From Patescibacteria group bacterium (GTDB lineage Bacteria; Patescibacteriota; Minisyncoccia; 2-02-FULL-40-12; GWA2-44-9), in NCBI GenBank assembly GCA_038062135.1, contig JBBTXT010000003.1, positions 1-40,624 on the forward strand: DNA of 40,624 nt, given 5' to 3'. Both the position numbers and the translations under genes were made by a program. Positions 4,130 to 30,102 of this stretch are shown here, in pieces. How positions within the stretch are numbered: the first letter of the stretch is position 1; every line of letters starts with the position of its first letter. The notes beneath the pieces were generated by a model. That model had not been told where the DNA came from, made no database searches, and was given only the letters and a program-made list of their open reading frames with translations.

Positions 4130-4228
4130 TATTTTCTAACCTGGATAACCCGCCTTGACGCTTCTTATTAAAGGGAATAAACCAGGACATCTCCATACGG
4201 AGGAAACCGTGGAGTAAGGGAGATTGCC

Positions 4229-4324
4229 ATGAAGGCAGAGGACGTGGTCAAATGCGCCTTCCTGTGCACGATCATCGCGGTGTGTTGCTGGCTGGGACTC
4301 GGGAGGAATAACTATGAGGATTAA
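4229..4324 (+). CDS. possible 31-aa hydrophobic, Cys-rich small protein
   Basis: ATG at 4229 preceded by GGAGTAAGGGAG. Translation is MKAEDVVKCAFLCTIIAVCCWLGLGRNNYED. It overlaps the next ORF's start by 11 nt. Not in the ORF track because it is short. Confidence 0.3.
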   Translation: MKAEDVVKCAFLCTIIAVCCWLGLGRNNYED

Positions 4325-4823
4325 TGAAGATCCAAGACCCCTCATCACCGTCCTTGCGATGTTCGTGGCGGTTCTTTGGGCGCCCGTAAGCCAAGGGGGT
4401 AAACGGCACAATGTTGGCTACGGCGCCAATTCGGTCCATCAGACGGAAGGCAGGACGGTCTTCAAAGTTATCCCCACTTCGCAAGGCTATAGAAGGTGCG
4501 AGACACTGGGGATAACGGTCCAGATAGAAAACCCGGGACCGAAGTACTACTGCCTGGGGGTCAGGATTGAGTGGGGCGACGGCAGTACGAGCGAACACGA
4601 ATCTTCCTGCGAGCCGTTTGAAACGCTTGAAGATGAAGAAAAGCGCTTATCTTCGCACCCCTACTTCTTCCACAAATACCGGACACTGGCGTACCGGGAG
4701 GTGCGCATCACTCTGTACGAACAGGGCTCGGGGAAGAACCTGAAGACGCTCGAAACCATCAGGCTGAACCAGCACTTGGGTGGAATAAGCGTGTCGGAAA
4801 AAATAAGCGGCAGCATCAATTGA
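4314..4823 (+). CDS. secreted or membrane-anchored hypothetical protein with a PKD-like signature (169 aa), GC-rich cassette
   Basis: GGGAGG lies 7 nt before the ATG. There is an N-terminal hydrophobic segment (PLITVLAMFVAVLWAPVSQG). IEWGDGSTSE ... HKYRTLAYREVRITLYEQG loosely resembles the PKD WxFGDGS / HxY...Y.V.L pattern. Third codon positions are biased to G/C compared with neighbouring genes. Confidence 0.6.
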   Translation: MRINEDPRPLITVLAMFVAVLWAPVSQGGKRHNVGYGANSVHQTEGRTVFKVIPTSQGYRRCETLGITVQIENPGPKYYCLGVRIEWGDGSTSEHESSCEPFETLEDEEKRLSSHPYFFHKYRTLAYREVRITLYEQGSGKNLKTLETIRLNQHLGGISVSEKISGSIN

Positions 4824-4831
4824 GCGCGACC

Positions 4832-4863
4832 GGACGGGCAGCAATGCCCGTCCTAATTTTTTA
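4832..4863 (+). terminator. rho-independent terminator
   Basis: GGACGGGCA (4832-4840), loop GCAA, TGCCCGTCC (4845-4853), then TAATTTTTT. Confidence 0.75.
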
Positions 4864-4870
4864 TACAGAG

Positions 4871-5182
4871 TTATTCGCCAAGCTGGAACGGTGGATATAT
4901 ATCCGTGAGTCCCATGAAAAAAGCGTTTACCCTAGTGCTCCAGCGAGTCACGCCTACGGTAAAGTTAAAAAGTTCCTGCGGGTATTTACCGATAAACAGC
5001 ACCGCAAACTGGCCGATAACCACAGCAATAAACGAAGCGATACCAAGCACCCACAAAATAATAAAGTGCGGTACCAACGCTATCGCTTTTGGGAATAAAA
5101 ACAAAAGAAACGAAAGCGCCCATAAGCGCGAAGACTTTTCCGGCCGGCTGATAGAAACTGTTACGGGATGTTGTGTGTTCAT
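4871..5182 (-). CDS. DUF4389-family membrane protein
   Basis: Sequence ...KAIALVPHFIILWVLGIASFIAVVIGQFAVLFIGKYPQELFNFTVGVTRWSTRVNAFFMGLTDIYPPF matches my memory of the DUF4389 pattern (iPH...GryP...rw..rv.ay...ltd.YPPF). Confidence 0.75.
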   Translation of the reverse strand: MNTQHPVTVSISRPEKSSRLWALSFLLFLFPKAIALVPHFIILWVLGIASFIAVVIGQFAVLFIGKYPQELFNFTVGVTRWSTRVNAFFMGLTDIYPPFQLGE

Positions 5183-5519
5183 ATTTTTATTGTTTTAAAT
5201 TTAATTACTTTCTAAGATCGGCCCACAAGGATAATATACCAAGCGCTAGAAAAAGTAGTGACTCAATCCAATTGCCTTTCTGAAATGCTTCCACTAGGGC
5301 TATCCCGAAAAAATATTATAAATACCGCTTGATTTGTAAACTTTAGATTTTTCATATCCATCCGACTTCTCTTCAAGGATATAAAATAGGTTGCCATTTG
5401 GCAATCTATTTTATATCTGCGGTGGCGGGGTGGTTCAGTCCTCGTCCGGATGTTCGTCAAAGTAAGTTCGGATTTTAACCAAAAGGTACCGCAATTCATC
5501 CAATTCCGATTTTCAATTT

Positions 5520-5607
5520 TGGCGGAGGCGGGAGGATTCGAACCTCCGGTACCTTGCGGTACACCCGCTTTCCAAGCGGGCGCACTAGACCACTATGCGA
5601 CGCCTCC
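5520..5607 (-). tRNA. tRNA-Ser (anticodon GGA), type II, CCA encoded
   Basis: The reverse complement folds as acceptor GGAGGCG/CGCCTCC, anticodon stem CCCGC/GCGGG with loop TTGGAAA (GGA), a long variable arm, T-arm GGAGG-TTCGAAT-CCTCC, discriminator G and CCA. Confidence 0.9.
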
Positions 5608-5651
5608 AGAATTGAGGGGGCTCCTTGCGGGGCCCCCTTGAGAAAGTACGA

Positions 5652-5975
5652 TCAGACGACGGTGTGAACCTCGCCGACCTCGGCCAGGAGATTGAAGTTA
5701 GGCGGAATGCTGGTGAGCTGTTCTTCCACCCACTCCCGAGCCTGGTCGGTCAGGAACTCGTCCAGTGGGAGTTCCTCGCGGGCCACGATCAGGCACGACA
5801 GAAGGTCGTGGTTATTGAGGTCTTTGGGCCAAGTGTGATGGTGGCTCAGCCGGTGGATGACCTCCCGAAACACCTCTTCGGTCTCCATGAGCATCTCCGG
5901 CAAGTGCCCAAAGGTGGTCTTGTAGACCTCCAAGAGCATCGCGCGGAGATCCAGATTCCTATTCTGCATGCTCAT
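5652..5975 (-). CDS. hypothetical acidic protein, 107 aa, GC-rich cassette
   Basis: ATG at 5973-5975, one nucleotide after the murD stop (TAG at 5977-5979), with GAGGT inside the murD 3' end. Strong G/C bias at third codon positions. Followed by a GC hairpin at 5616-5637. The opposite-strand ORF 5625..5993 lacks this codon bias. Confidence 0.6.
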   Translation of the reverse strand: MSMQNRNLDLRAMLLEVYKTTFGHLPEMLMETEEVFREVIHRLSHHHTWPKDLNNHDLLSCLIVAREELPLDEFLTDQAREWVEEQLTSIPPNFNLLAEVGEVHTVV

Positions 5976-5976
5976 C

Positions 5977-7410
5977 CTACCTCACTTTCCTGACCAGGGT
6001 GTTGAACTTTGCACCCCTGTCATACTCGTTCTTGAAGAGCCCGAAGCTTTTGGCACCGGGCGAGAAAACAATCGCGGCTTTTGGCATCCTCCGCGCCAGA
6101 GCCAACGCGGCGTGAAACGCTTGGGCCAGATCCGCCACCTGGGTAACGCCATGCCACCTCCTAGGCAAACTTGCGATCATATTAGCAGTCGCGGTGCCTT
6201 CAAGCAAGATGAGATTATCCTTCTTAATGTATTTAGGAATGACTCTGCCCCAGTTCTTAAAATCAAGATTTCGGTCGGTTCCGCCGGCAATAAGGATAAC
6301 GTTGGGCCGCCCCCCCTTCGCCAAGGCTCCGAATGGCGAAGCAAATCTTTTTACCGCGGCAATAGAGCCTTCGGGAGAGGTTGCGGTTGTGTCGTTTACT
6401 ATTGTCAGGTGTTTATTTTTGAAAATAATCTCTTGGCGAAATGGTATTTGTGGAAGCGAAACAATGCGGGATTGAATTTCTTTTCCGGTTACGCCGGCAA
6501 GATATGCAGCAAGCGCGGAGGCAAGAAGATTCTCAAGGTTGTGGCTTCCGTATTCTTTTTCAAAACTCTTTACTAAAAGTACCGGGTGGGCGTGCCCGTC
6601 AAATTGGTAACAGATCTCGCCCTTTTTATAAAAAACTCCGTTTTGTTTTTTGTTTAATTTACCCGTCGCCGAGAAAAACCAGACATGACATTTGGATTTG
6701 CTCTTGGCAAGCTTTGAAAAATACGGCGTCCATTTGTTGTCCGCGTTCAAAATAAGTACTTGACCCTGCTTTTGGCCGATAAATAAATTTGCTTTGGTAT
6801 CCGCATAACCTTTCATAGTAAGGTGCCGGTTGAGATGGTCTTGGTAAAGATTGGTCACCACGGCAATATCTGATTTTCGCATTTCTTCATTGAATAATTC
6901 CAAATGGAAGGATGGGATTTCGGACGCAACCCAGTCTAATTTTGGCGTACGATCTACAATTTTCAGAAATTGATATTCGGTTGAATTACCCGCAATCGCG
7001 GAGTGATACTTTGCACCGAGAAAATGATTAATCCAATGCGTGGTCGTGGTTTTTCCACGAGTTCCTGTTATGCCGACAATCGGACAAGTCACCCACTTAA
7101 AAAATAGTGTGGCTTCGTTTTCAACAGGAATTCCTTTTTTAAAAGCGTGCTTGATGTATTCATTATTAATTGAAACATCCGGATTCATAACTATTAAATC
7201 CGATTTTTCAATGTCTTTTTTTGAATGGCCGCCAAGCTTGAGCAAAACTTTCCCCTTTATTTTTTTAAGGGTTGGAGCCAGGTCTGTTTTGGTTTTCAAA
7301 TCGGTGACCGTAACTTTTGCGCCATGCTTAATGAGCCAGTTTGTTGTGGCCAGTCCCCCGCCTAAAATCCCGAACCCGAAAACTAAAACTTTTTTATTCC
7401 TTATGTCCAT
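5977..7410 (-). CDS. murD: UDP-N-acetylmuramoyl-L-alanine--D-glutamate ligase
   Basis: N-terminal Rossmann segment KVLVFGFGILGGGLATTNWLIKHGAKVTVTD and the Mur ligase P-loop GITGTRGKTTTTHWI. Confidence 0.88.
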   Translation of the reverse strand: MDIRNKKVLVFGFGILGGGLATTNWLIKHGAKVTVTDLKTKTDLAPTLKKIKGKVLLKLGGHSKKDIEKSDLIVMNPDVSINNEYIKHAFKKGIPVENEATLFFKWVTCPIVGITGTRGKTTTTHWINHFLGAKYHSAIAGNSTEYQFLKIVDRTPKLDWVASEIPSFHLELFNEEMRKSDIAVVTNLYQDHLNRHLTMKGYADTKANLFIGQKQGQVLILNADNKWTPYFSKLAKSKSKCHVWFFSATGKLNKKQNGVFYKKGEICYQFDGHAHPVLLVKSFEKEYGSHNLENLLASALAAYLAGVTGKEIQSRIVSLPQIPFRQEIIFKNKHLTIVNDTTATSPEGSIAAVKRFASPFGALAKGGRPNVILIAGGTDRNLDFKNWGRVIPKYIKKDNLILLEGTATANMIASLPRRWHGVTQVADLAQAFHAALALARRMPKAAIVFSPGAKSFGLFKNEYDRGAKFNTLVRKVR

Positions 7411-8307
7411 TTATTTACCGCGTAAAGCTCTTATCCTTTCTTCAACCGGCGGGTGAGTCATAAATAGTTTTGCAATCCAGTTTTTGTTTTCTTTTCCCTT
7501 GAGGGGGTTGGCTAAAAATAGATGTGCGGTTGCGGTATGTGCAGTCCGGAGCGGAACGTCGTCGTGAGATATTTTTTCTAAGGCGCTTGCTAGGCCTTCG
7601 GGGTAGCGGGTTAAAAGCGCGCCGGAAGCATCAGCGACAAACTCGCGTTTTCTTGAAACCGCAAGCTGTATCATTGTTGCCGCCAAGGGCGCCAAAATTG
7701 CCGAAACAATCGCAAGCACCACAAAGACGGTATTGCCGCCGCGGTCGTTATCTCGGTCTCGCCCTCCCCAGTACGTCATTCTTAAAAACCAGTCTGACAT
7801 TATCGCGATCATCCCCGCGAGCACCACAACAATCGTGGAAACCAAAATATCACGATTACCAATGTGTGAGAGTTCATGCGCAAGAACGCCAGTCAATTCG
7901 TTGTCATCAAGTCGCTCAAGTGCGCCTTGGGTTACCGCAACCGCCGCATGCTTAGCATCGCGTCCGGTTGCAAAGGCGTTAATTTGCTGGCCGGGGATTA
8001 TATAAAGCCTAGGTAAGGGTAAGCCGGCAGTGATTGAAAGATTTTCAACAATTCTGAAAAGTCTTTCATTGCCAGACCTCTCAAGTTGACGTGCGCCAGA
8101 CATCGCAAGGGCGACTTTATCGGAGTACCAATATGCGAAAATATTACCAACAACGCTCATGAAAGCAAAGATGTAAAGAATTGATGGATTGCCGTACGCT
8201 CGGCTAAATACAAATCCCACCGCGACCAAAAGCACAAAAACCGCTGTCATGAGCAACCAGCTTTTGCGGACATTACTGTCCTGATGAGTATAAAGATTCT
8301 GAACCAT
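7411..8307 (-). CDS. htpX: M48-family zinc protease HtpX
   Basis: Four hydrophobic segments, the HELSHIGNRD (HExxH) motif, and a C-terminal ...MTHPPVEERI. Confidence 0.9.
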   Translation of the reverse strand: MVQNLYTHQDSNVRKSWLLMTAVFVLLVAVGFVFSRAYGNPSILYIFAFMSVVGNIFAYWYSDKVALAMSGARQLERSGNERLFRIVENLSITAGLPLPRLYIIPGQQINAFATGRDAKHAAVAVTQGALERLDDNELTGVLAHELSHIGNRDILVSTIVVVLAGMIAIMSDWFLRMTYWGGRDRDNDRGGNTVFVVLAIVSAILAPLAATMIQLAVSRKREFVADASGALLTRYPEGLASALEKISHDDVPLRTAHTATAHLFLANPLKGKENKNWIAKLFMTHPPVEERIRALRGK

Positions 8308-8474
8308 CTGGATTTTATAATTTTATAGATTTCTTTGTTGTGGGTTTCAGCGACTTACGGGCGGCTAAAGCACGCCCTGTCGCCTGCGGTGCTCACTCGT
8401 CGTATGTCTATACGACTCATTTCGCTCCTCGCCCACGCCTCGAACTCTAAAAAATTCTTTCAATCCCACAAATC

Positions 8475-9020
8475 TTAGAACGAAACTTTTACCGGTTCGC
8501 GCTGTGCCTCGTCAGAGAGCTGGAAGAATTCTTCTTTCTTAAAGCCAAATAATCCGGCGACAATATTTGTCGGAACTGTTTCAACCTTAGTGTTGAGAAT
8601 CAAAACGTTTGAATTGTAGAACCGACGGGCAGCCTGGATTTTGTTTTCCGTGTCAGATAACTCTTCCTGAAGTTTTGTAAAACTTTCTACTGCGCGCAGT
8701 TGTGGATACGCCTCCGAAAGCGCGAAGATGGATTTCAAAGCACCCGTGAGCATATTTTCGGCTTGTGCGTGTTCGGCAACGGTTTGCGCACCCATCGCCT
8801 TGGCGCGAGCGGAAATCACCGCATCCAGGGTTCCCTTTTCATGTTCGGCATAGCCCTTAACCGTTTCCACAAGATTCGGAATAAGGTCGTAGCGACGCTT
8901 TAACTGTACATCAATATCGGACCAGGATTCTTTAACCCTGTTCTTGGCCAACACGAGGCCGTTGTAGACGAAAATGAGCCACAGAACAATCAACCCGAGA
9001 ACAATGTATATGATTGGCAT
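8475..9020 (-). CDS. lemA: LemA-family membrane protein
   Basis: N-terminal TM helix, then YNGLVLAKNRVKESWSDIDVQLKRRYDLIPNLVETVKGYAEHEKGTL, which is typical of LemA. Confidence 0.88.
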   Translation of the reverse strand: MPIIYIVLGLIVLWLIFVYNGLVLAKNRVKESWSDIDVQLKRRYDLIPNLVETVKGYAEHEKGTLDAVISARAKAMGAQTVAEHAQAENMLTGALKSIFALSEAYPQLRAVESFTKLQEELSDTENKIQAARRFYNSNVLILNTKVETVPTNIVAGLFGFKKEEFFQLSDEAQREPVKVSF

Positions 9021-9083
9021 ATGTAGAGAGATAAACTATTTGTTACCAGCTAATGGTACAAGACTAAATCAGCAAATACAACC

Positions 9084-11005
<1,922 letters not shown>

Positions 11006-11017
11006 AAGTATTAAAAA

Positions 11018-11044
11018 TTAGCAGTTACCTTATACGAGTGCTAA
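11018..11044. promoter_or_regulatory. CIRCE operator (HrcA binding site) in the groES leader
   Basis: TTAGCAGTT-N9-GAGTGCTAA compared with the consensus TTAGCACTC-N9-GAGTGCTAA. The right arm is perfect and the left arm has 2 mismatches. It lies 13 nt upstream of the groES ATG. Confidence 0.75.
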
Positions 11045-11046
11045 TT

Positions 11047-11074
11047 ATGATAGCAAAAGGAAGGGGGCCGTCAA
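11047..11074 (-). promoter_or_regulatory. candidate groESL promoter
   Basis: The reverse strand reads TTGACG (11069-11074), 16 nt, TATCAT (11047-11052), immediately followed by CIRCE. The -35 box lies in the loop of the upstream gene's terminator hairpin. Confidence 0.5.
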
Positions 11075-11088
11075 CTACTTGGCCCCCT
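11053..11088 (-). terminator. rho-independent terminator of the 233-aa gene
   Basis: The reverse strand reads AGGGGGCC, an 11-nt loop, GGCCCCCT, then TCCTTTTGC. The hairpin overlaps the stop codon at 11075-11077. Confidence 0.6.
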
Positions 11089-11776
11089 CTGTGCGATTAA
11101 CTCCTTTTCGGAACTTTGCCAGTATCGCTTCCGCGCCTTCATGGTCAACGCGGGCCCAGGCTCTTACGTACGGATCTTTCTTGTCCGTTCCAGCCCGAGA
11201 ACGCTCTATGGCAACGATGTTGTTGCCGCCCAATTTACCAAAACTGGCCACAAGTGCAGAAAAGACAACAACATGGTTTGCGAACCGCCCGTCCTCCGAC
11301 TCTTTGCCGAGGGCTGAAGTCGTGGCACGTTTGAGTATCTGACCCTCTGCTCCTTTCGTCAGGTTGTGCACGAGCTCGTGAGCTACCGCCGCTACACAGC
11401 CGCTTGAGGTGTCCGCCAGTTCCGCAGGTATCAGAATTGGCCTGCTAAACGGTTGGCCCCCATTTCCCACAATGAAGGCTGGGATTTTGGCGGACTTGAA
11501 ACGTAGGCCAAGTTCCTGCTCCATCATCGGCATTACTAACGGCTCCCAGCCTGCCCAGACTTGCTTGCACAGATCGGCTCGTTTCTCCAAATCCTCTAGG
11601 GTGAAGAGTGGCCCAGTCCACGATGATGCGTTTCCAGCGATCTGGAGAGAAAGATCTATGTCGTAGCCGACTTCAATAACGACTCGCGGACTGTATTTCC
11701 CTGGCGGGGAATTGCTTCCACAACCAGTGAGCATCGCCAACAGTCCGGCGCACAGCACTATCGCGTATCGGACCAT
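11075..11776 (-). CDS. predicted lipoprotein with HExxH zincin motif (233 aa), moderately GC-rich cassette
   Basis: AAGGAGG lies 7 nt before the ATG. Signal peptide plus lipobox MVRYAIVLCAGLLAMLTGC. The AAVAHELVHNL (HExxH) motif is present. I recognise no further family. Confidence 0.65.
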   Translation of the reverse strand: MVRYAIVLCAGLLAMLTGCGSNSPPGKYSPRVVIEVGYDIDLSLQIAGNASSWTGPLFTLEDLEKRADLCKQVWAGWEPLVMPMMEQELGLRFKSAKIPAFIVGNGGQPFSRPILIPAELADTSSGCVAAVAHELVHNLTKGAEGQILKRATTSALGKESEDGRFANHVVVFSALVASFGKLGGNNIVAIERSRAGTDKKDPYVRAWARVDHEGAEAILAKFRKGVNRTEGAK

Positions 11777-11797
11777 GGCAAGGCCTCCTTTGCAGGC

Positions 11798-11825
11798 ATA
11801 CTACGTCAAAGTAATCCCGAGTCAA
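11798..11825 (-). promoter_or_regulatory. candidate promoter for the 233-aa lipoprotein gene
   Basis: The reverse strand reads TTGACT (11820-11825), 16 nt, TAGTAT (11798-11803). It is embedded in the last codons and stop of the upstream 330-aa gene. Confidence 0.45.
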
Positions 11826-12798: not shown

Positions 12799-12828
12799 AT
12801 ACTAGCCTTTTGTTGGCTTATTTCAAAC

Positions 12829-12858
12829 TTGACCAAGCATGTTTTAATATGCTATAAT
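12829..12858 (+). promoter_or_regulatory. near-consensus sigma70-type promoter with extended -10
   Basis: TTGACC (12829-12834), 18 nt, TGcTATAAT (-10 box at 12853-12858), about 65 nt upstream of the ATG at 12926. Confidence 0.6.
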
Positions 12859-12925
12859 ATAGTTGTTCTTAAACAATTCGTTCGCAATCGTTTTTCACGT
12901 TCAAGTCCTAAGGAGGGGCTAAAAG

Positions 12926-13591: not shown

Positions 13592-13624
13592 TCGGAGGAG
13601 GGAGGGTCGGAGAAGCTCTGACAT

Positions 13625-13660
13625 GGCCAGGCGTGAACAACGCCTGGCCTATTTCTTTTT
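13625..13660 (+). terminator. rho-independent terminator
   Basis: GGCCAGGCG (13625-13633), loop TGAACAA, CGCCTGGCC (13641-13649), then TATTTCTTTTT. Confidence 0.8.
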
Positions 13661-19961: not shown

Positions 19962-20966
19962 ATGTCTAAGAAAGTTTTACTCACTGGTGACCGGCCGACA
20001 GGCCCGCTCCATATCGGCCATTATTTTGGTTCGCTCATCAACCGCAAAGCATTGGAAACGGATTACGAGAGTTATATTCTCATAGCCGATATTCAGGCTC
20101 TTACCGACAACTGGGAACAGCCGGAAAAAGTTCGCGCGAATGTGTACGAAGTGGCAGCAGATAATCTGGCACTCGGGATTGATCCGGAAAAAACGACGCT
20201 CTATATCCAAAGTCAAATCCCCCAGATCGCGGAATTAACGGTTTTATATTCAAACCTAGTCACCGTAAATACGCTCCGCCGCAACCCGACCGTAAAAGCC
20301 GAGATTGCACAAAAGAAGGAGTTATTTGGCGCGGACGGCGAAAGCGTCACTTATGGCTTTTTGGGTTACCCCATAAGCCAGGCCGCGGACATCACCCATG
20401 TGCGGGCAGATATCGTACCCGTCGGTGAAGACCAACTGCCGATGATTGAGCAAACCAGGGAAATAATAGAAAAGTTCCACCGCATTTATAACACCGAAAT
20501 CTTCCCCTTCCCCCAGGCAAAACTTTCCCAGGCACCGAGAATTCTTGGACTGGATGGCAACGCTAAAATGTCCAAGAGCCTCAACAACGCAATTTACTTA
20601 AAAGATTCTGCCGAAGAAACTGAAGCAAAAATAAAAGTCGCCACTACGGATTCCGAAACCACTGTCGGCTACAATCCAGAAAAACGGCCGGAGGTTTCAA
20701 ATCTTGTTTTAATCTACGCCCTTGCAAAAGGTATGACTCCCGAACAAGCCATTGGTGAGCTCGGGCAAATCAATTACAGCACATTTAAACCGCTCCTTGC
20801 CAAAGCCCTCAACGAACATCTTGCACCACTGCGCGAACGGAGAATTGAGATCGTTTCCAAACCAGGCTACACTGCAGAAATCCTCTCCGCCGGCCGCGAG
20901 CGCGCTATTAAAAAAGCCGAAGAAACCATGAACCTCGTCCGGAAGGCAATGAAGATTGACTACTAA
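19962..20966 (+). CDS. trpS: tryptophan--tRNA ligase
   Basis: MSKKVLLTGDRPTGPLHIGHYFG (HIGH motif) and AKMSKSLNN (KMSKS motif). I chose the internal ATG at 19962 over the track's upstream start at 19878. Confidence 0.92.
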   Translation: MSKKVLLTGDRPTGPLHIGHYFGSLINRKALETDYESYILIADIQALTDNWEQPEKVRANVYEVAADNLALGIDPEKTTLYIQSQIPQIAELTVLYSNLVTVNTLRRNPTVKAEIAQKKELFGADGESVTYGFLGYPISQAADITHVRADIVPVGEDQLPMIEQTREIIEKFHRIYNTEIFPFPQAKLSQAPRILGLDGNAKMSKSLNNAIYLKDSAEETEAKIKVATTDSETTVGYNPEKRPEVSNLVLIYALAKGMTPEQAIGELGQINYSTFKPLLAKALNEHLAPLRERRIEIVSKPGYTAEILSAGRERAIKKAEETMNLVRKAMKIDY

Positions 20967-20984
20967 TTTTTTAAGGAATAGTAT
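20956..20984 (+). promoter_or_regulatory. near-consensus promoter for the 89-aa cassette gene
   Basis: TTGACT (20956-20961, inside the last trpS codons), 17 nt, TAGTAT (20979-20984). Confidence 0.5.
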
Positions 20985-21006
20985 CTTAATGAAATAAGGA
21001 GGAGTC

Positions 21007-21276
21007 GTGAAAGAAACTAGAGTGTCGTTCAACGACCTGCTTCCGCACCAGAAGGAACAGGTTCGCACCCTGCTCGCGTCCGCGGGCGGGAACCCTGGGG
21101 GTGACATCGTGGAGATAGTAATTCTCACCAGACCATTCAACGAGGAGATTCTGCGTCCGTTTCTGAAGACGCCCCACATGGATGTCGGGGGAGACTGTCC
21201 GGACGGTCAGCGCCTGAGCCAGGTTCTGCCCAACCATCCGCTCTCTCGAATTATCCGAGACGAGATGGATGACTAG
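21007..21276 (+). CDS. hypothetical acidic protein, 89 aa, GC-rich cassette
   Basis: GTG start 4 nt after AAGGAGG. Moderately enriched for G/C at third codon positions. Followed by its own hairpin terminator. No recognisable family. Confidence 0.5.
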   Translation: MKETRVSFNDLLPHQKEQVRTLLASAGGNPGGDIVEIVILTRPFNEEILRPFLKTPHMDVGGDCPDGQRLSQVLPNHPLSRIIRDEMDD

Positions 21277-21307
21277 GTAAACGGCGCTAAGCACCGACCA
21301 CACGCAC

Positions 21308-21347
21308 GCTCCATCTGCTTCGGCGGGTGGAGCGCTGTTTTCTTTTT
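21308..21347 (+). terminator. rho-independent terminator
   Basis: GCTCCATCTGC (21308-21318), loop TTCG, GCGGGTGGAGC (21323-21333, two G-T wobbles), then GCTGTTTTCTTTTT. Confidence 0.65.
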
Positions 21348-21374
21348 GCTCCATTCAGCTTATACTTGGGCCGT

Positions 21375-22721: not shown

Positions 22722-22725
22722 AACT

Positions 22726-23379
22726 ATGATAATTAATGAGCTAAAGGATGTACTAATTCTTATCCTTGGGTGGCTCCTTGGTTTACTGGGACCAGTAATT
22801 GTGGACGCCATAAAAGATAAGCGCGAAGCCAAGGCTATGAAGGCGGCTTTATTTTCAGAGCTTCACGAGCTTCAGTACAGACTTATGCTGTCTGCGTATC
22901 AAATTGAGAGTAGGTATGGTGAATTAAATCATGAATTTTTCCTATGGGCCCAGGGTATACTTGTTGGATATAAAGGTGTTAATTCAAGCGAGTCTCTATT
23001 GAAGATAATTGGTCCATTATTAAAACTAACGGATGAGCAGATGAAGACTTATGCACAACAAACAAAACAGCAAAACCAGCCCATCTCAGGTCTATCTCTA
23101 AAAAAGTATTCCTTGTCATTATTGGAGTCATACTTATCATCACTAGCAAAATTTGATTCAAAATTAAGGGGTCATCTTTTAGAATTGAAGGTTCATATTG
23201 CTTTTATAAACGAGGTTGTTGATGATGCTCGTTATTATTTTAGGCTTTCATTTCAAAATAATATCTCTCCTACAAATTATGACATCGCAAATAATAATAT
23301 GATAGATTCTTATAAAGCTTATAAATCACAAGCAAGGGTTGCTGTTGAGATTATTGGTAAAATCTTATCAAAAAAATAA
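22726..23379 (+). CDS. hypothetical protein with N-terminal TM helix (217 aa), AT-rich ORFan
   Basis: Track ORF, 4 nt after the murC stop, with its own stop abutting the ychF ATG. Visibly lower GC than either neighbour. N-terminal VLILILGWLLGLLGPVIV followed by a helical, Lys/Gln/Asn-rich region. Confidence 0.6.
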   Translation: MIINELKDVLILILGWLLGLLGPVIVDAIKDKREAKAMKAALFSELHELQYRLMLSAYQIESRYGELNHEFFLWAQGILVGYKGVNSSESLLKIIGPLLKLTDEQMKTYAQQTKQQNQPISGLSLKKYSLSLLESYLSSLAKFDSKLRGHLLELKVHIAFINEVVDDARYYFRLSFQNNISPTNYDIANNNMIDSYKAYKSQARVAVEIIGKILSKK

Positions 23380-24507
23380 ATGTCAAGTACAAAACTTTCC
23401 ATCGGTATTGTCGGTCTTCCCAATGTGGGCAAATCCACGCTTTTTAAAGCCGTCACCAACAAACAGGTAGATATTCAGAACTACCCCTTTACCACTATTG
23501 AACCGAATGTGGGCGTCGTAGCGGTACCGGATGAACGCGTTGATGCGCTGGCACTGATGTCAGGATCGGCCAAGAAAATCTACACCACCATTGAGTTCAC
23601 AGATATTGCGGGTCTGGTAAAAGGTGCGAGTCAGGGCGAGGGCCTTGGCAATAAATTTTTGGCCAACATCCGCGAGGTAGACGCAATCGCCCAAGTAGTG
23701 CGCGCATTTGAAGATGCAAACATCACCCACGTCCACAGCCGGATCAACCCAGTTGAAGACATCGGGATCATCAACACAGAACTTATTATTGCTGACCTAG
23801 ACACGGTCACCCGAAGAATTGAAAAAACGGCCAAAGAGGCGAAGAACGACAAGAAAGCACAAAAAGATTTACCCATCCTGGAAAAGCTCAAACAAACACT
23901 TGAAAGCGACACGATTATTTCTAAAATTGATCTTCATGAAGAAGAACGCGAATTGGTCAAAGAGCTTAACCTCCTAACCGCCAAGCCATTTATTTACGTA
24001 ATCAACGTTTCAGAACAACAGCTTTTGGATAACTGGCAGCCGGACGAAAAGTTAAAGTTAGCCTTTGGAAATGCCTCATTTGTCGTGATGTGCAACAAGC
24101 TAGAACTTACACTGTCCGAATTATCACAGGAAGAACGGAAAGAGCTCATGCTAGAGTTCAATCTGCTTGCCACGCCGGAGCCATCTGGCGCAGGTGGGCC
24201 CGAGAGCGGTTTGGATAAGTTAATTAAAGAGAGCTATCACACGCTTGGACTCATAACGTTTCTCACCACTGGACTAGATGAAAGCCGAGCCTGGACGGCG
24301 CACAAAGGAGATTTAATACCCAAGGCATCCAGCGCGATTCATACTGATTTTGAAAGACTGTTTATACGCGCCGAGGTCATCAATTGGAAAACCTTACTTG
24401 AGTGTGAGAGCTACGCAACCGCCCGCTCAAAGGGACTCGTTCGTACAGAGGGCAAAAATTACGTCATCCAAGATGGCGATGTTGTTGAGATTCTTATTGG
24501 AAAATAA
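23380..24507 (+). CDS. ychF: ribosome-binding ATPase YchF
   Basis: IGIVGLPNVGKSTLFKAVT, DIAGLVKGAS, and a C-terminal TGS-like segment ...GKNYVIQDGDVVEI. Confidence 0.93.
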   Translation: MSSTKLSIGIVGLPNVGKSTLFKAVTNKQVDIQNYPFTTIEPNVGVVAVPDERVDALALMSGSAKKIYTTIEFTDIAGLVKGASQGEGLGNKFLANIREVDAIAQVVRAFEDANITHVHSRINPVEDIGIINTELIIADLDTVTRRIEKTAKEAKNDKKAQKDLPILEKLKQTLESDTIISKIDLHEEERELVKELNLLTAKPFIYVINVSEQQLLDNWQPDEKLKLAFGNASFVVMCNKLELTLSELSQEERKELMLEFNLLATPEPSGAGGPESGLDKLIKESYHTLGLITFLTTGLDESRAWTAHKGDLIPKASSAIHTDFERLFIRAEVINWKTLLECESYATARSKGLVRTEGKNYVIQDGDVVEILIGK

Positions 24508-24510
24508 AGG

Positions 24511-24534
24511 GCGCGGGATCCGAAGATCCCGCGC
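24511..24534. terminator. bidirectional hairpin between ychF and the 68-aa gene
   Basis: GCGCGGGATC, loop CGAA, GATCCCGCGC: a perfect 10-bp stem lying between two convergent stop codons. Confidence 0.65.
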
Positions 24535-24558
24535 TATGGTTGGTGGTGCCGTTCTTGC

Positions 24559-24765
24559 CTAGGCGGCACTCGCGGTGGCCGGCTTGGGAACGGACCTGAC
24601 CCAGGCGAACTTCCCCGTGTCCTGGAACATCAACCGCCCCTTCTTCCAGCAGACATCCTTGCCGGTGCTCGCGGCGGTCTGCTTGGCCAGCTTCTTGCGC
24701 TCGGTCCGGAAGGACCGCGCCTTCAGCTCCGCTTCCGTCTTCTTCCTGACCATGGGCCGGGCCAT
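24559..24765 (-). CDS. small basic protein, 68 aa, GC-rich cassette
   Basis: GAGGAGG lies 5 nt before the ATG. By hand count, 63 of 67 codons end in G or C. Sequence MARPMVRKKTEAELKARSFRTERKKLAKQ... is Lys/Arg-rich. The competing ORFs 24494..24793 and 24575..24826 lack an SD. Confidence 0.55.
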   Translation of the reverse strand: MARPMVRKKTEAELKARSFRTERKKLAKQTAASTGKDVCWKKGRLMFQDTGKFAWVRSVPKPATASAA

Positions 24766-24812
24766 GGAACCTCCTCTTTTTACGCCGAACCACTTCGGCG
24801 ATGTCCTAATAT

Positions 24813-24840
24813 ATTATCATACATAAACAGGGTGTGTCAA
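24813..24840 (-). promoter_or_regulatory. candidate promoter for the 68-aa gene
   Basis: The reverse strand reads TTGACA (24835-24840), 16 nt, GATAAT (24813-24818). The -35 box forms a palindrome (GTCAA CTTT TGAC) with the rpsF -35 box. Confidence 0.5.
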
Positions 24841-24843
24841 CTT

Positions 24844-24872
24844 TTGACTTTTTACCGTAAAATTGCTACTAT
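24844..24872 (+). promoter_or_regulatory. candidate rpsF operon promoter
   Basis: TTGACT (24844-24849), 17 nt, TACTAT (24867-24872), about 90 nt before the rpsF ATG. Confidence 0.55.
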
Positions 24873-24962
24873 TTTGGAGTATCAATAACCGCGTAGAAAG
24901 TACGCGGAAACCCCGCCAAACTTTTACTTCGTAAAACTTAGGCTGGCAAACCAAAGTATTGT

Positions 24963-25385
24963 ATGTCTGAAACTTTAACCATGTACGAACTGGGGTACCA
25001 CTTGGACCCCGCCCTGGACGAGGCAACCGCCGCCCAGAACAGGACCGCAGTAGAAAAGCTCGCGACCGATAAGGGCGCCACGATAGTCATGTCGAAAGAG
25101 CCGGAACGCACCCGTCTCTCGTATCCGATTAACCACCAGCGCGCAAGCTATTTCGGATATTTCCGTTTTACGCTTGAGAACAAGGATGGTTTGGCGGAAA
25201 TGGACGAGGAGCTCAAACTCAATCCGGCAGTTATTCGTTCCGTTTTGCTAAAGATTGAACCGGAATCCGAAAGACGGGCACCGCGCATACGTCCTACTAT
25301 GGAGAAAAAGACTACACCGGCCGTTCCCAGCCAGCCGAATGCCGCGCTGGATGAACAGATTGAAAATGTTTTAGGAAACATTTAA
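24963..25385 (+). CDS. rpsF: 30S ribosomal protein S6
   Basis: MYELGYHLDP...RLSYPINHQRASYFGYFRF, followed by ssb and rpsR in the conserved order. Confidence 0.9.
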   Translation: MSETLTMYELGYHLDPALDEATAAQNRTAVEKLATDKGATIVMSKEPERTRLSYPINHQRASYFGYFRFTLENKDGLAEMDEELKLNPAVIRSVLLKIEPESERRAPRIRPTMEKKTTPAVPSQPNAALDEQIENVLGNI

Positions 25386-25396
25386 GCTATCCGAAT

Positions 25397-25939
25397 ATGA
25401 ATCTCAACAAAGTATTACTGATCGGACGCCTAACTCAAGACCCGGAAACCCGCGCTACGCCCGGCGGACAGACCGTAACCACGATCCGGATGGCCACCAA
25501 CCGCAACTGGACCAATCAGACCAGCGGTCAGAAGCAGGAATCAACCGAGTTCCATACTGTTGTTGCCTGGGGGCGGCTTGCAGAGATAGCCAGCCAGTAC
25601 TTAAAGCGTGGGGGTTTAGTTCTTATTGAAGGTCGGCTTCAAACCCGCACCTGGGTCGGCAAGGATACGGTAAAACGCTACACCACCGAAATAGTAGCCG
25701 AGAACTTACAGCTTGGTCCGCGAAGCTACAGCCAGGGCGGAAGCACCATGTCGGACGTTCGCCAGCCTGACCGCCTGTCCGGCCAGGGGTCAGAGCCCGC
25801 AACAAAGCCTGCTAGCCAGCCCAATGCGGCTCCCCTTGAAGATGAGATACCAATCATCAGTGAGGATGAGGTAGCCCGCCAAGGACAAGAAATTGAGGAA
25901 GAAGAAGTAAAAATAAAAGAAGAAGACTTGCCATTCTAA
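25397..25939 (+). CDS. ssb: single-stranded DNA-binding protein
   Basis: OB fold NKVLLIGRLTQDPETR...TEFHTVVAWGRLAE...GRLQTRTW and an acidic tail ending in EEDLPF. Confidence 0.93.
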   Translation: MNLNKVLLIGRLTQDPETRATPGGQTVTTIRMATNRNWTNQTSGQKQESTEFHTVVAWGRLAEIASQYLKRGGLVLIEGRLQTRTWVGKDTVKRYTTEIVAENLQLGPRSYSQGGSTMSDVRQPDRLSGQGSEPATKPASQPNAAPLEDEIPIISEDEVARQGQEIEEEEVKIKEEDLPF

Positions 25940-25942
25940 ATT

Positions 25943-26158
25943 ATGAGCACTATCTGTAATTTTTGCCAAGATAACATAGAGCATCTGGACTACAAGGACA
26001 CGAAAGTTCTGCGAAAGTTCGTGACCTCGGAGTTCCGCATCGGTTCAGCCAAGCGCAACAAGCTTTGCAAAAAGCACCAGCGCCGGGTTGCTAATGCAAT
26101 CAAGATCTCCCGCCTCATGGCGCTCATGCCATACACCCGAAACCAGACCGTAAGATAG
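25943..26158 (+). CDS. rpsR: 30S ribosomal protein S18
   Basis: CNFCQDNIEHLDYKDTKVLRKFVTSEFRIGSAKRNKLCKKHQRRVANAIKISRLMALMPY. Confidence 0.93.
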   Translation: MSTICNFCQDNIEHLDYKDTKVLRKFVTSEFRIGSAKRNKLCKKHQRRVANAIKISRLMALMPYTRNQTVR

Positions 26159-26170
26159 TCCAGGCTCATT

Positions 26171-26198
26171 ATAAAACCCCGGTTACCCGGGGTTTTAT
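26171..26198. terminator. bidirectional terminator between rpsR and recA
   Basis: ATAAAACCCCGG, loop TTAC, CCGGGGTTTTAT: a perfect 12-bp stem with A/T tracts on both sides. Confidence 0.8.
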
Positions 26199-26210
26199 AA
26201 TTCTTAATAC

Positions 26211-27305
26211 CTAGCGCTTGAAAACCTTGGGACCCATTTCGCCTTTCATGGGTTCAGCCTCGGCAAGGGCGGCGGCGACATTAATTTTATCGCGCAGTTC
26301 CTTTTTGAGTTTCGGGTTATCTTTCAATGCCTTTCGAGTACTCTCCATCCCCTGACCGATTTTTTCTCCGTTGTAGGAATACCAGGAGCCTTGTTTTTCC
26401 ACGATGCCGTAGTTGATTCCGGTGTTGATGATGTCCGCTTCGCCGGAGATGCCCTCGTTGTAGAGAATATCAAACTCACAGGTGCGGAACGGTGGAGCAA
26501 CTTTGTTTTTAACAATCTTAATTTTTACCCGATTACCGACAATTTTTTCACCCGATTGAATCTGGGCCGCCCGGCGGATTTCAATACGCACTGAAGAATA
26601 GAACTTAAGGGCCAGACCTCCGGTGGTTGTTTCGGGGTTGCCGAACATGATGCCGATTTTTTGGCGAATCTGGTTGATGAATAAAACGGTGGTGTTGGTC
26701 TTGGCAACAATAGCCGTGAGTTTACGCAAGGCATGGCTCATGAGACGAGCCTGAAGACCGACATGCTGTTGGTCCATCTCACCTTCAATTTCGGCGCGCG
26801 GGGTAAGCGCCGCCACCGAGTCTATAACCACAATTGAAATGCCGCCCGATTTTACGAGGGTCTCAACGATTTCAAGCGCCTGCTCGCCAGTATCCGGTTG
26901 TGAGATAAGTAAGTCTTGTATCTTTACGCCGATTTTTTTCGCATATTCGGGATCAAGCGCGTGTTCGGCGTCTACATATGCCGCTACGCCGCCGGCTTTT
27001 TGTACTTCGGAAACAATATGCAACGCAAGGGTAGTTTTGCCGGACGATTCCGGGCCATACACCTCAATCACGCGTCCGCGCGGAACTCCGCCGACACCAA
27101 GCGCGATATCAAGCGAAATGGATCCGGTCGGTATAACATCCACGTCAACTTTCTTGGCCTCGCCAAGCTTCATTATGGATCCCTCGCCGTATTTCTCCTG
27201 AATCTCCTTGATCGCTAAATCAACTTGCTTATTGCCTGCTGATTTTTCCCGTCCTCCTTGGACGAAGCTCGCCTCTTGGGCGGCTTCGGTTTGCTTTTTT
27301 GCCAT
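26211..27305 (-). CDS. recA: recombinase RecA
   Basis: GSIMKLGE..., [37 protein letters not shown]. Confidence 0.97.
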
Positions 27306-27317
27306 ATGAATTAATTA

Positions 27318-29546
27318 TTAAACTTCTTCGTTCTCTGCTTCTTTTGAATCGGCATTCACGCCGGTCACGCCGTAGTGCTGGGGGATGCTGGTAGCTGCCA
27401 GCGAGGCATCGGGACGGCCTCCAATCTCACCTGGCTTAATATACACCTCGCGAGGCTTGGCGCCGTCGCCTGGGCCGATAATACCCTTCTCTTCAAGGAT
27501 ATCAAGCAGGCGAGCCGCACGGGCGTATCCAAGGCCAAGGCGGCGCTGGAGAAGCGATGCGGAGGCCTTGCCCATCTCAATTACCATACGCTTTGCATCT
27601 TCGTATTTATCGTCATCAACGTTGTCACTACCGTAACCGCCATGGCCGTTGCTTCCGGAAGCATTTTCAAAATCAACCTGTATGTTTGTGTCGGCAAGCT
27701 CACCAGCCAGCTTCTCCCCCTGCGCCGCAAGGAACGAAACAACTTCCTTTACTTCGTTCTCGGTGACATTCGGACCTTGAACGCGGCGCGGCTTTGAGCT
27801 TTCGTTGGATACAAACAGCATGTCGCCTTTTCCAAGCAAACGTTCCGCTCCGGCCATATCTAAGATGGTACGCGAGTCAATCTGGCTTGCCACCTGAAGC
27901 GCAATGCGGGATGTAATGTTGGCCTTGATAAGGCCGGTAATAACTTCTACCGACGGGCGTTGGGTGGAAAGAATAAGATGTATACCTACAGCGCGCGACA
28001 TCTGCGCCAAGCGTACGATTGCCGTTTCAACATCGCGTCCGTATGTGGCCATGAGGTCCGCCATTTCGTCTATCACAATGACCAGCATCGGCATGAACGG
28101 TTCTTTCTTCTCAGCCATCTTGGCGTTGTAAGTAAGAATGTCGCGAGTAGCCGCCTTGGAAAGCAGTTCGTAGCGGCGATCCATTTCGTTTACCGCCCAC
28201 TTGAGGGCACCCATGACTTTTTTGGTATCCGTGATAACGGGCGTGATGAGATGGGGAATATTGTTGTAGAGGGACAGCTCTACGCGCTTTGGATCAACGA
28301 GGATTAATTTAAGAACGTCCGGAGAGTGTTTATACAAAAGCGACATCAAGATTGAGTTGATGACGACAGATTTTCCACTACCGGTGGCGCCAGCGACCAA
28401 AAGGTGCGGCATTTTTTCAAGGCCGGCATAAATCGGATTACCGGACACGTCGCGCCCGATTGCAATCGGTAGAAAATATTTAGACTTCGTGAATTCGTCG
28501 TGCTCAAACATACTCTTAAGGCCAAGGATTGCAGTTTTCTTGTTGGGAACCTCAATACCGATCAAGGACTTACCAGGTATGGGCGCCTCAATGCGGATTG
28601 GATGCGCGGCAAGCGCAAGTGAAAGGTCGGGGTGTAAAGCGCTGATTCTGGATAGCTTTACACCCACAGCCGGACGGAGGGTGTATTGGGTTACAGTGGG
28701 ACCAATGGACACCTCACCCATTTCCACATCAATGCCAAAGTGCGCCAGCGTGCGGCGGATAATCATCGCGTTAGCGTTAATATCGCCCGAAGAAGCGTCG
28801 TTCTGGTCTTCATTCATCAGGTCAAGTGGCGGAAGTTTCCAGGTGCCAAGTTTGACGTTTTTTATAACAAACTCCTCCATTCTTTCTTCTCTCGCCTGCT
28901 TTGCCTTGAGTGCATTTGCATTAGGTTGCATAGACGACTGCGCAACGCTTACCGGCGCCGGATTGGTAACTAAAGGTTTAATGGAAACCGGCTTATCTTC
29001 CATCTCTTTTTTATTCTCTTCTTCCTTTTGAGGCAGGAGTCCGTGAATAGGCACATTGAGAGAAAGAAGCAGAGAAACTATAAGCAGGCCGACAAGGATA
29101 ATCAAAGCGGCTATAAAGCCGACCAGCATTAAAAGCGGCCATCCAAGCGCCACACCAAGGTATCCGCCCTGGGCTACCCGCGTGGCAAAATCCCCTTCGC
29201 CGACGATAAATAAAATGCCCAGCGAAGAAAGTGTAAATAAAGCCGTACCCAATACTGCGCTTAATGCTATCTGGCGGTGGATAGATTTAATAAATGCCGC
29301 GCCCAAAAGCACAAACGCAACCGAAACAATAAAGAAGCCCCAGCCAAAAAGCGAGCGTGCGATCGCATTAATAAATTCTCCCGCCGCACCAGCCTTGCCG
29401 GCAAAGCTTAAAACGGCGACTACCGCCACCAAAAAGCTCGCAATACCGAGAATGCTGTTTTTTGTCTCCTGGGAAATATCCAGCCATCCGCCATCGTCAT
29501 GTGAATGCGAAGATGTGTTTTTGCCGTTCTTTTTAGGCCGTGCCAT
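27318..29546 (-). CDS. ftsK: DNA translocase FtsK/SpoIIIE
   Basis: N-terminal multi-TM region, Walker A VAGATGSGKSV, LVIVIDEMADL, and a C-terminal winged-helix gamma domain (...ASASLLQRRLGLGYARAARLLDILEEKGIIG). Confidence 0.93.
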   Translation of the reverse strand: MARPKKNGKNTSSHSHDDGGWLDISQETKNSILGIASFLVAVVAVLSFAGKAGAAGEFINAIARSLFGWGFFIVSVAFVLLGAAFIKSIHRQIALSAVLGTALFTLSSLGILFIVGEGDFATRVAQGGYLGVALGWPLLMLVGFIAALIILVGLLIVSLLLSLNVPIHGLLPQKEEENKKEMEDKPVSIKPLVTNPAPVSVAQSSMQPNANALKAKQAREERMEEFVIKNVKLGTWKLPPLDLMNEDQNDASSGDINANAMIIRRTLAHFGIDVEMGEVSIGPTVTQYTLRPAVGVKLSRISALHPDLSLALAAHPIRIEAPIPGKSLIGIEVPNKKTAILGLKSMFEHDEFTKSKYFLPIAIGRDVSGNPIYAGLEKMPHLLVAGATGSGKSVVINSILMSLLYKHSPDVLKLILVDPKRVELSLYNNIPHLITPVITDTKKVMGALKWAVNEMDRRYELLSKAATRDILTYNAKMAEKKEPFMPMLVIVIDEMADLMATYGRDVETAIVRLAQMSRAVGIHLILSTQRPSVEVITGLIKANITSRIALQVASQIDSRTILDMAGAERLLGKGDMLFVSNESSKPRRVQGPNVTENEVKEVVSFLAAQGEKLAGELADTNIQVDFENASGSNGHGGYGSDNVDDDKYEDAKRMVIEMGKASASLLQRRLGLGYARAARLLDILEEKGIIGPGDGAKPREVYIKPGEIGGRPDASLAATSIPQHYGVTGVNADSKEAENEEV

Positions 29547-29630
29547 ATGGATAAAACGAGTATAAAAGACTGACTAATTATATCCCTTGTGAAGCACAGC
29601 GCAAGGCAAAACTTAGGATATTTTAATATA

Positions 29631-29659
29631 TTGACTTGGTCGGTATAAAGGTGTATAGT
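29631..29659 (+). promoter_or_regulatory. near-consensus promoter for the receiver-like cassette gene
   Basis: TTGACT (29631-29636), 17 nt, TATAGT (29654-29659). Confidence 0.55.
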
Positions 29660-29679
29660 ATATGCATCAGGAGGATGAC

Positions 29680-30033
29680 ATGATCGGAGTTTTGGTGGTG
29701 CACAAAGAAGAGGGCACGCGCAAGCTGATCAGGGACATGATCATCGTGCGGGGGGACGAGTACGAAGTGGTGATGACCGAAAACGCTGGTCGCGCCCTAG
29801 AAGCGATCTATGATGACCAGTCCATCAGCCTCGCCATAGTGGACTTCCAGGCCATCTGGCCAGACTGCGGAGTCTTCGCCGAGGGCGCCAAGATGTTTAG
29901 GCGGAACGTCGTCATCGCCCTCGCCGTGGATGACCCGGACGAAGGCGGCGACCGGGTGGACATCAAATTCAAGATGATGGACCTGCCGGCTCGCTTGGAC
30001 GAGTTCCTGGCGATGGCCAAGTCGGCGGCCTAG
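29680..30033 (+). CDS. stand-alone degenerate CheY-like receiver-fold protein (117 aa), GC-rich cassette
   Basis: AGGAGG lies 6 nt before the ATG at 29680. The track's ATG at 29662 sits immediately downstream of the -10 box (29654-29659), at or just upstream of the likely transcription start, so it would probably not be on the transcript or would have no SD-bearing leader. IGVLVVHKEEGTRKLIRDMI..YEVVMTENAGRALEAI...SLAIVDF follows the receiver beta1-alpha1-beta2-alpha2-beta3 pattern. The usual DD acid pocket is replaced by HK, while the phospho-acceptor-position Asp is retained. Confidence 0.5.
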   Translation: MIGVLVVHKEEGTRKLIRDMIIVRGDEYEVVMTENAGRALEAIYDDQSISLAIVDFQAIWPDCGVFAEGAKMFRRNVVIALAVDDPDEGGDRVDIKFKMMDLPARLDEFLAMAKSAA

Positions 30034-30051
30034 CCGCCGACGATTGTCCCC

Positions 30052-30102
30052 AAGGGCTTGCTTGACTGCTGAAGAAGCAGTGAGGCAAGCCCTTAACTTT
30101 TT
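30052..30102 (+). terminator. rho-independent terminator of the receiver-like gene
   Basis: AAGGGCTTGC (30052-30061) pairs with GCAAGCCCTT (30085-30094), with a nested CTGC/GCAG hairpin between them, followed by AACTTTTT. Confidence 0.65.

Follow-up and report, generated by a model that had tools for sequence, protein, structure and literature searches.

Seven Shine-Dalgarno-led accessory genes in the gaps of a conserved housekeeping backbone of a Patescibacteria genome

Results

Locus and cassettes

The stretch of DNA analysed here, called the window in the following, comprises 40,624 nt (positions 1 to 40,624 of contig JBBTXT010000003.1, assembly GCA_038062135.1, Patescibacteria group bacterium) with a GC content of 48%. 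It holds a run of housekeeping genes, namely dnaG, obg, a DEAD-box helicase gene, murD, htpX, lemA, groEL/ES, uvrC, secG, an SBP gene, the RNase J gene, trpS, murC, ychF, rpsF-ssb-rpsR, recA, ftsK, rpoC, rpoB and ftsW, as well as two tRNA genes, one 5S rRNA gene and the 3' part of one 23S rRNA gene. In the gaps of this backbone lie seven small open reading frames (ORFs), the cassettes C1 to C7 (Table 1). An earlier note on this DNA had set them apart from the core genes by their Shine-Dalgarno (SD) sites, GC-rich third codon positions, own stem-loops and, in five cases, near-consensus promoters, and had read them as foreign, moron-like genes from a high-GC donor or as an unrecognised class of single-gene insertions.

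The species representatives closest to it belong to 'Candidatus Yanofskybacteria' and other Paceibacteria; in UvrC they share just 45–49% identity. Contigs of identical or almost identical sequence occur in Hainich groundwater metagenomes and in the metagenome-assembled genome GCA_964369075.1. The gene orders murD-htpX-lemA-groEL-groES-(330-aa gene)-uvrC-…-trpS-…-ychF and 23S-5S-…-ftsW-…-rpoB-rpoC-ftsK are kept in dozens of relatives. C1 to C7 are found in none of the dozens of distant relatives that share the backbone. There, the slots are filled by other, unrelated genes, many of them preceded by strong SD sites.

In six of the seven cassettes one ORF has promoter and terminator signals to itself; the exception, C2, abuts murD and lacks a promoter of its own. 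The independent expression proposed earlier is thus borne out by sequence signals for six units. The near-consensus promoters reported for five loci were found again (C3 to C7), as was a GC-rich stem-loop after each of the seven, two of these by eye. The promoters are of native type, and in two of them (C3, C5) the -35 box is part of the adjacent core gene. The leaders of C3, C5 and C7 are ~15–25 nt long and contain little beyond the SD site. Position 4229, formerly taken as the start of C1, begins a separate 31-aa ORF; its overlap of 11 nt with the ATG region of C1 suggests translational coupling. C2 is carried in the databases in its 105-aa form.

An Rfam scan of the window returned only the tRNAs, 5S and 23S and no RNA at the seven loci. 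Together with the strong codon periodicity this rules out a non-coding RNA as source of the GC-rich islands, and from the three-base periodicity the loci are therefore coding sequences. For C3, 45 sequences show no variation at H133, E134 and H137 and almost none at H168; Pfam matches are weak, and the confident structure model (pLDDT 88.6) has no significant PDB match, the best being to M1 peptidases (E=0.39). With its invariant HExxH motif it is a putative zinc metallopeptidase. The C7 model (pLDDT 75.6) has receiver domains among its non-significant structure matches (TM-score about 0.5), the DD pair of receivers is replaced by HK and Pfam gave no match; the receiver-like fold is tentative. 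No family was assigned by Pfam to the products of C1, C2, C4, C5 and C6.

Table 1. Cassettes C1 to C7 and their signals in the window (GC3, GC fraction at third codon positions; TM, transmembrane segment)
Feature	Position	Strand	Description
Upstream ORF of C1	4229–4324	+	31 aa, Cys-rich, hydrophobic; own SD AAGGGAG; GC3.75
C1	4314–4823	+	169 aa; N-terminal signal or anchor helix; SD GGGAGG 4301–4306; GC3.67
C1 intrinsic terminator	4832–4853	+	9-bp stem, then T run
C2	5652–5975	-	107 aa (105 aa if from 5969); acidic, helical; directly after murD; GC3.81
C2 SD	5979–5983	-	GAGGT; within murD 3' end
C2 hairpin	5616–5637	-	GC-rich; just before tRNA-Ser; seen by eye
C3 promoter	11798–11825	-	TTGACT-16-TAGTAT; within last codons of upstream 330-aa core gene
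C3	11075–11776	-	233-aa lipoprotein; SD AAGGAGG 11784–11790; GC3.58
C3 terminator hairpin	11062–11088	-	loop encloses groES -35 box (TTGACG); seen by eye
C4 promoter	12829–12858	+	TTGACC-18-TATAAT, 11/12 match; ~90% identical in sister species
C4	12926–13591	+	221-aa two-TM membrane protein; SD AAGGAGGGG 12909–12917; GC3.81
C4 intrinsic terminator	13625–13649	+	
C5 promoter	20956–20984	+	TTGACT-17-TAGTAT; -35 box within last trpS codons
C5	21007–21276	+	89 aa, acidic; GTG start; SD AAGGAGGAG 20996–21004; GC3.69
C5 terminator	21307–21334	+	12-bp stem; takes place of 5' arm of native trpS terminator
C6 promoter	24813–24840	-	TTGACA-16-GATAAT, 11/12 match; back to back with rpsF promoter
C6	24559–24765	-	68 aa, basic; SD GAGGAGG 24770–24776; GC3.94
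C6 terminator	24511–24534	-	convergent with ychF end
C7 promoter	29631–29659	+	TTGACT-17-TATAGT; conserved in sister species
C7	29680–30033	+	117-aa alpha/beta protein; SD AGGAGG 29669–29674; GC3.82
C7 terminator hairpin	30052–30094	+	19-nt arms

Shine-Dalgarno sites divide accessory from core genes

A motif of the GGAGG or GAGGT type is located at SD distance before all seven cassette ORFs. It is of the GGAGG type and lies 5–9 nt before the starts of C1 (4314), C3 (11776, minus strand), C4 (12926), C5 (21007), C6 (24765, minus strand) and C7 (29680); in C2 a GAGGT stands 3 or 9 nt before the start (5975 or 5969, minus strand). None of the ~31 core-gene starts in the window is preceded by a motif of either type. 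Fisher's test of 7/7 versus 0/31 yields p=8e-8, though the set had been picked by the earlier reader partly for this very trait. Core genes have G-poor leaders, which show A at positions -6/-5 and T at -1. For several core genes that are first in their operon the -10 box is just 6–9 nt upstream of the start, and these genes look leaderless.

The same division appears in 63 related loci (numbered with the prefix L below), from which the window was left out and in which SD matches of at least 6 bases were counted, with locus-specific genes of at least 100 aa. Such a site precedes 2 of 316 conserved genes (0.6%) and 21 of 149 locus-specific genes (14%; p=2e-9); as a background, 0.8% of ATGs in general have one. 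The SD split between conserved and locus-specific genes is clade-wide, and conserved genes are at background frequency. The earlier observation, a canonical SD before every cassette and none before the core, thus holds; SD sites as common before core genes were seen neither in the window nor in the related loci.

In the orthologues of C3, C4 and C7 the SD core is retained while the adjoining bases vary, down to a protein identity of 27–30%. From this retention amid changing neighbours we infer that the SD sites of the cassettes are functional. A further observation concerns a contig of a 34%-GC genome of the candidate phyla radiation (CPR), L127, which is otherwise SD-free and carries one DUF948 gene (499–993) with the perfect SD TAAGGAGGT, a sporadic SD of the kind seen here, though in another lineage.

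Codon composition

The core genes have a mean GC3 of.501 with a standard deviation of.073. Relative to these, the cassettes reach z-scores of 2.3 (C1), 4.2 (C2), 1.1 (C3), 4.2 (C4), 2.6 (C5), 6.0 (C6) and 4.4 (C7), and the difference between cassettes and core is significant (Mann-Whitney p=4e-5). C2, C4, C6 and C7 are strong outliers. C1 and C5 are mild ones, whose GC3 is no higher than that of the native rpsR (.68), and C3 is no outlier, so that the enrichment noted earlier for all seven loci does not extend to C3. The shift is located at third and first codon positions and is absent from the second (GC2), where the cassettes are at or below the native level (.29–.38 for C2, C4 and C7).

Codon usage of highly expressed genes was considered as cause of the GC3 excess and rejected: rpsF, ssb and rpsR show the same lean for Lys, Gln and Phe and the opposite one for Val, Gly and Ala. 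GC-biased gene conversion was considered as another cause; core-gene ends beside the slots are raised just at murD and rpsF. The last ~60 codons of murD (5977–6160, minus strand), which adjoin C2, have a GC3 of.65–.72 versus.3–.5 in the remainder of the gene; this raised end could be the edge of a recombination tract.

Orthologues in the sister and other species

A sister species is represented by contig ERZ21828321 contig-100_664 (loci L121 and L128), the core proteins of which are 84–98% identical to those of the window at a synonymous divergence (dS) of about 0.7–1.1. It possesses C4 in the same slot (L121; 78% aa identity, GC3.83, SD GGAGGG) and also C7 in the same slot (62–63% aa identity, GC3.87, SD AGGAGG), each behind the corresponding promoter. 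The ratios of nonsynonymous to synonymous divergence (dN/dS) are.30 for C4 and.43 for C7; both genes are therefore under selection. Their dS values are.46 and.55, compared with ~.9 for the core. This gene class has a lasting preference for G/C-ending codons, which the orthologues retain.

Three cassettes, C3, C5 and C6, are missing from the sister species as clean indels. That of C6 removes the entire unit (~350 nt) and that of C5 is likewise ~350 nt long. The indel edges of all three are inside native gene ends, terminators and promoters, and there are no duplications. The presence/absence variation which the earlier note had suggested looking for therefore exists for C3, C5 and C6 and does not for C4 and C7, which the sister shares.

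In a third species (L125) the 330-aa gene is 81% and C3 88% identical to the window, and the C4 slot holds a 29%-identical C4 homologue (hidden Markov model, E=3e-13), which gives C4 positional orthologues in three species. The search for C3 homologues was exhaustive and their genomic contexts were sampled; the family comprises ~54 representative sequences, and in L124, L125 and L126 a member occupies the gap between the same pair of core genes. Those of L124 and L126 are distant (27–34% identity). L124 keeps the terminator hairpin enclosing the groES -35 box, the copy of L126 shows native-like GC3 and just a weak SD, and the homologue in L127, which is in another context, has no SD. The slot genes of L015, L017, L018, L031 and L034, which are unrelated, are not matched by the C3 profile.

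For C2, a profile of the 114–117-aa gene located after murD in two relatives finds it as top non-self match (E=0.014, the next at 1.4), and C2 is probably the positional orthologue of that gene. Orthologues at the same positions and of native-like composition, which would speak for residents rather than insertions, were thus found in part: C3 has positional homologues, of which that in L126 is native-like, and the same position is also taken by orthologues of C4 (three species), C7 (sister species) and probably C2.

Recombination and origin

Sequence identity around C3 forms a mosaic. The window and L125 are 58–79% identical over the 5' two-thirds of the 330-aa gene and 85–98% from about 12210 through C3 to the groES start, and in this same segment the identity of window and sister species drops to.70–.83. 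This segment is a tract of homologous recombination in which C3 moved along with the adjoining core sequence. No shared repeat family or common end sequence exists among the seven cassettes, whose 3' hairpins are unrelated in sequence, and no integrase or transposase is encoded in the window, in agreement with the earlier note. Integron gene cassettes were considered too; neither an attC-type shared 3' site nor an integrase was found within the window.

Matches of C4 and C7 among 5.8 billion proteins are limited to relatives within the lineage. For C3 the exhaustive search revealed no homologue outside the lineage; the members whose contexts were read are all in CPR genomes, three of them in the same slot. 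None of the seven cassettes matches phage or plasmid records, and C1, C2, C5 and C6 have no match in IMG/VR. Because C4 and C7 match lineage relatives alone and matches to phages, plasmids and IMG/VR are missing, a recent high-GC donor is not supported. Of the features expected of an island from a distant donor, atypical composition was seen (strong in C2, C4, C6 and C7, not in C3), as was patchy presence (C3, C5 and C6).

Further features of the window

The 217-aa gene at 22726–23379 (plus strand) is a low-GC outlier (GC.35, GC3.30) without SD; its slot in the sister species holds an unrelated, SD-led gene of 129 aa (L121 15751–16140). Upstream of rpoB, a 92-aa gene at conserved position (37201–37479, minus strand) is 75% identical to the sister at the aa level with a dN/dS of.43, and combines this fast evolution with native composition and no SD. 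The rpsR-recA spacer, 52 nt long in the window, carries in the sister species an insert of 407 nt (L128 6160–6566), in which the gene calls of the source place no gene (no ORF scan was made) and Rfam finds no match.

The rpsF leader (24873–24962, plus strand), almost identical in the sister species, contains a conserved hairpin (ACCGCGTAG..TACGCGG); it has no Rfam hit at gathering threshold and may be an autoregulatory leader of the S6:S18 type. In the groES leader there is a CIRCE-like inverted repeat (11018–11044, minus strand). A near-perfect palindrome with 19-nt arms (5378–5417) lies within a 78-aa ORF (5263–5499), which is therefore doubtful as a gene. The 23S-5S pair (39448–40624, minus strand) lacks a preceding 16S gene in each of seven relatives (L041, L042, L047, L064, L077, L104, L110), so that the clade has a split rRNA operon; the window holds no 16S either. 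Group I introns occur in the 23S of L077 and L104.

Discussion

We regard the seven loci as real, independently transcribed accessory genes of a Yanofskybacteria-like Paceibacteria species from groundwater that sit in gaps of a conserved backbone, these gaps being exchangeable slots and the genes mostly old residents, and we give this reading a probability of about 60%. A typical unit would consist of a native-type sigma-70 promoter, a short SD-bearing leader, the ORF and a hairpin terminator, C2 riding on murD as an exception and C1 being accompanied by its small coupled upstream ORF. Translation of the core genes would start independently of an SD, from leaderless mRNAs or from A-rich, G-poor leaders, and the accessory genes would depend on it. 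The gaps would be slots exchangeable by recombination, the genes of which evolve fast and become lost or replaced. Replacement would occur by homologous recombination among related species with the flanking core genes as arms, which would explain the absence of an integrase, a transposase and repeats. C3, C4, C7 and, with a question mark, C2 would be old residents of the gene pool of the clade; C5 and C6 may be species-specific gains, or may have been lost in the sister species.

Several points weigh against this interpretation. In C2, C4, C6 and C7, G and C at third codon positions are each about doubled, resembling the codon usage of a genome of 60–65% GC, as a foreign origin would predict. 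Among the relatives, GC3 is raised just modestly in SD-led variable genes (+.06 versus -.02, p=.012). The homology of C2 is weak, and C3 may have been transferred in either direction. For C1, C5 and C6 no orthologue was found in any search made (the large protein databases were not searched individually for C1, C2, C5 and C6), and an outside origin of these is possible. Finally, Yanofskybacteria belong to the uL1-lacking 'OD1-L1' group, and the lineage may on this ground fall into the subgroup that lacks the anti-SD. The anti-SD motif of the 16S rRNA is reported to be missing in about half of the Parcubacteria sequences (Tsurumaki et al. 2022, PMC9297842). If the lineage is among these, the SD sites could not act by base pairing.

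The explanation favoured in the earlier note is a recent acquisition from a donor of high GC that uses SD sites, perhaps the host, with SD sites and G/C-ending codons as leftovers of that donor. Such an acquisition would account for a GC3 4–6 standard deviations over the core in C2, C4, C6 and C7 with both G and C raised, for the restriction of SD sites to these genes in the window, and for the loss or gain of C5 and C6 as clean units. That slot genes can bear different signatures is also illustrated by the low-GC, SD-less gene at 22726–23379. However, C3, C4 and C7 have no homologue outside the lineage, the C3 family sits in CPR genomes in the same slot, and relatives in phages, plasmids or IMG/VR are lacking. 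Moreover, GC2 is not raised, the orthologues still have a GC3 of.83–.87 after a dS of about 0.5, and the promoters are native-type and partly made of core-gene codons. We consider such a donor unlikely, and the foreign origin inferred earlier is not supported.

Somewhat less probable still, and in our view doubtful, is a dedicated translational class: with ribosomes that as a rule initiate independently of an SD, fast-evolving surface or interaction genes would keep SD sites and G/C codons for a separate anti-SD-dependent route of translation or regulation, comparable to the rare SD-led genes of Bacteroidia. The clade would then have two initiation regimes, an SD-independent one for the core and a separately controlled one for envelope or host-interaction genes with SD and G/C-ending codons. 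The clade-wide partition of SD sites between conserved and locus-specific genes fits this idea, as do the SD sites kept in distant C3, C4 and C7 orthologues, a composition shift confined to GC3 and GC1, and the low dS of C4 and C7. Yet extreme codon bias may have lowered the dS artificially, the variable or fast genes at 37201–37479 and 22726–23379 have neither feature, and of the C3 homologues that in L126 has just a weak SD and that in L127 none.

Mobile-element cargo of an unrecognised kind, or phage morons with one gene per insertion, would be in keeping with self-contained promoter-ORF-terminator units, seven of them within 26 kb, and with slots that hold different genes in relatives. We hold this to be very improbable, given that repeats, shared ends, integrase and transposase are lacking, the neighbours are housekeeping genes, viral or plasmid homologues are missing, and the indel edges lie in native terminators, promoters and gene ends. 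C3 in addition lies in a tract of homologous recombination reaching into its flanks. The reading of the earlier note thus receives partial support, and neither a moron origin nor a class of single-gene insertions is borne out.

A chimeric assembly, joining a low-GC CPR genome to fragments of a high-GC organism, can practically be dismissed despite a run of 100 N exactly over C5 in the public assembly GCA_964369075.1 (window 20906–21325; L009 13441–13540) and an ENA contig that starts 156 nt before this gap, since several independent ENA and Logan contigs span the junctions of C3 to C7 at 99.9–100% identity and other species and samples have orthologues of C3, C4 and C7 in the same surroundings. 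For C3 to C7 this answers the concern about the assembly raised earlier. C1 and C2 were found on five contigs from three sources, which concerns the occurrence of the genes, the spanning of junctions being shown for C3 to C7. A Logan contig spans C5, and the gap may reflect presence/absence variation within the population.

Among known systems, the accessory genes described here resemble recombination hotspots of flexible genomes in that variable genes stand at fixed positions of a backbone, with contents differing between relatives, and that a recombination tract covers a cassette and its core flanks without a dedicated recombinase. They differ in that each unit is one small gene whose regulatory signals overlap fully, that the genome has a size of about 1 Mb at most, and that the cassettes depart from the core in translation start. 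With phage morons they have in common a single ORF between unrelated genes, its own promoter and terminator and an atypical composition. Unlike morons, they have no prophage context and no viral homologues, their neighbours are groES/EL, uvrC, trpS, murC, ychF, rpsF, ftsK and rpoC, and several have positional orthologues across species.

Bacteroidota have an SD-poor translation with Kozak-like A-rich leaders and rare SD-led genes such as rpsU (compare PMC3155529). The core without SD, the A-rich and G-poor starts and the small minority with strong SD are alike; in contrast, the SD-led minority here is a fast-evolving accessory set and not a ribosomal autoregulatory gene, and many first genes look leaderless. 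The Parcubacteria reported to lack the anti-SD (PMC9297842) belong to the same broad lineage, and an SD-less core fits their reduced use of SD. The SD sites of mRNAs were outside that study, and the strong, conserved SD sites of the accessory genes would be unexpected if the anti-SD were truly lost.

Implications

Translation initiation in the CPR is almost unstudied, and the SD split offers a concrete test of whether the anti-SD is used and for which genes. The reading with two initiation regimes, if true, would place them in a lineage for which frequent loss of the anti-SD had been assumed. For annotation, a gene caller that has learned one signal alone will mis-start the other gene class. 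Calls of horizontal gene transfer that are based on composition would mislabel old, fast-evolving resident genes as foreign. Beyond this, the locus suggests how accessory genes may turn over in very small genomes without mobile-element machinery: as single-gene slots exchanged by homologous recombination.

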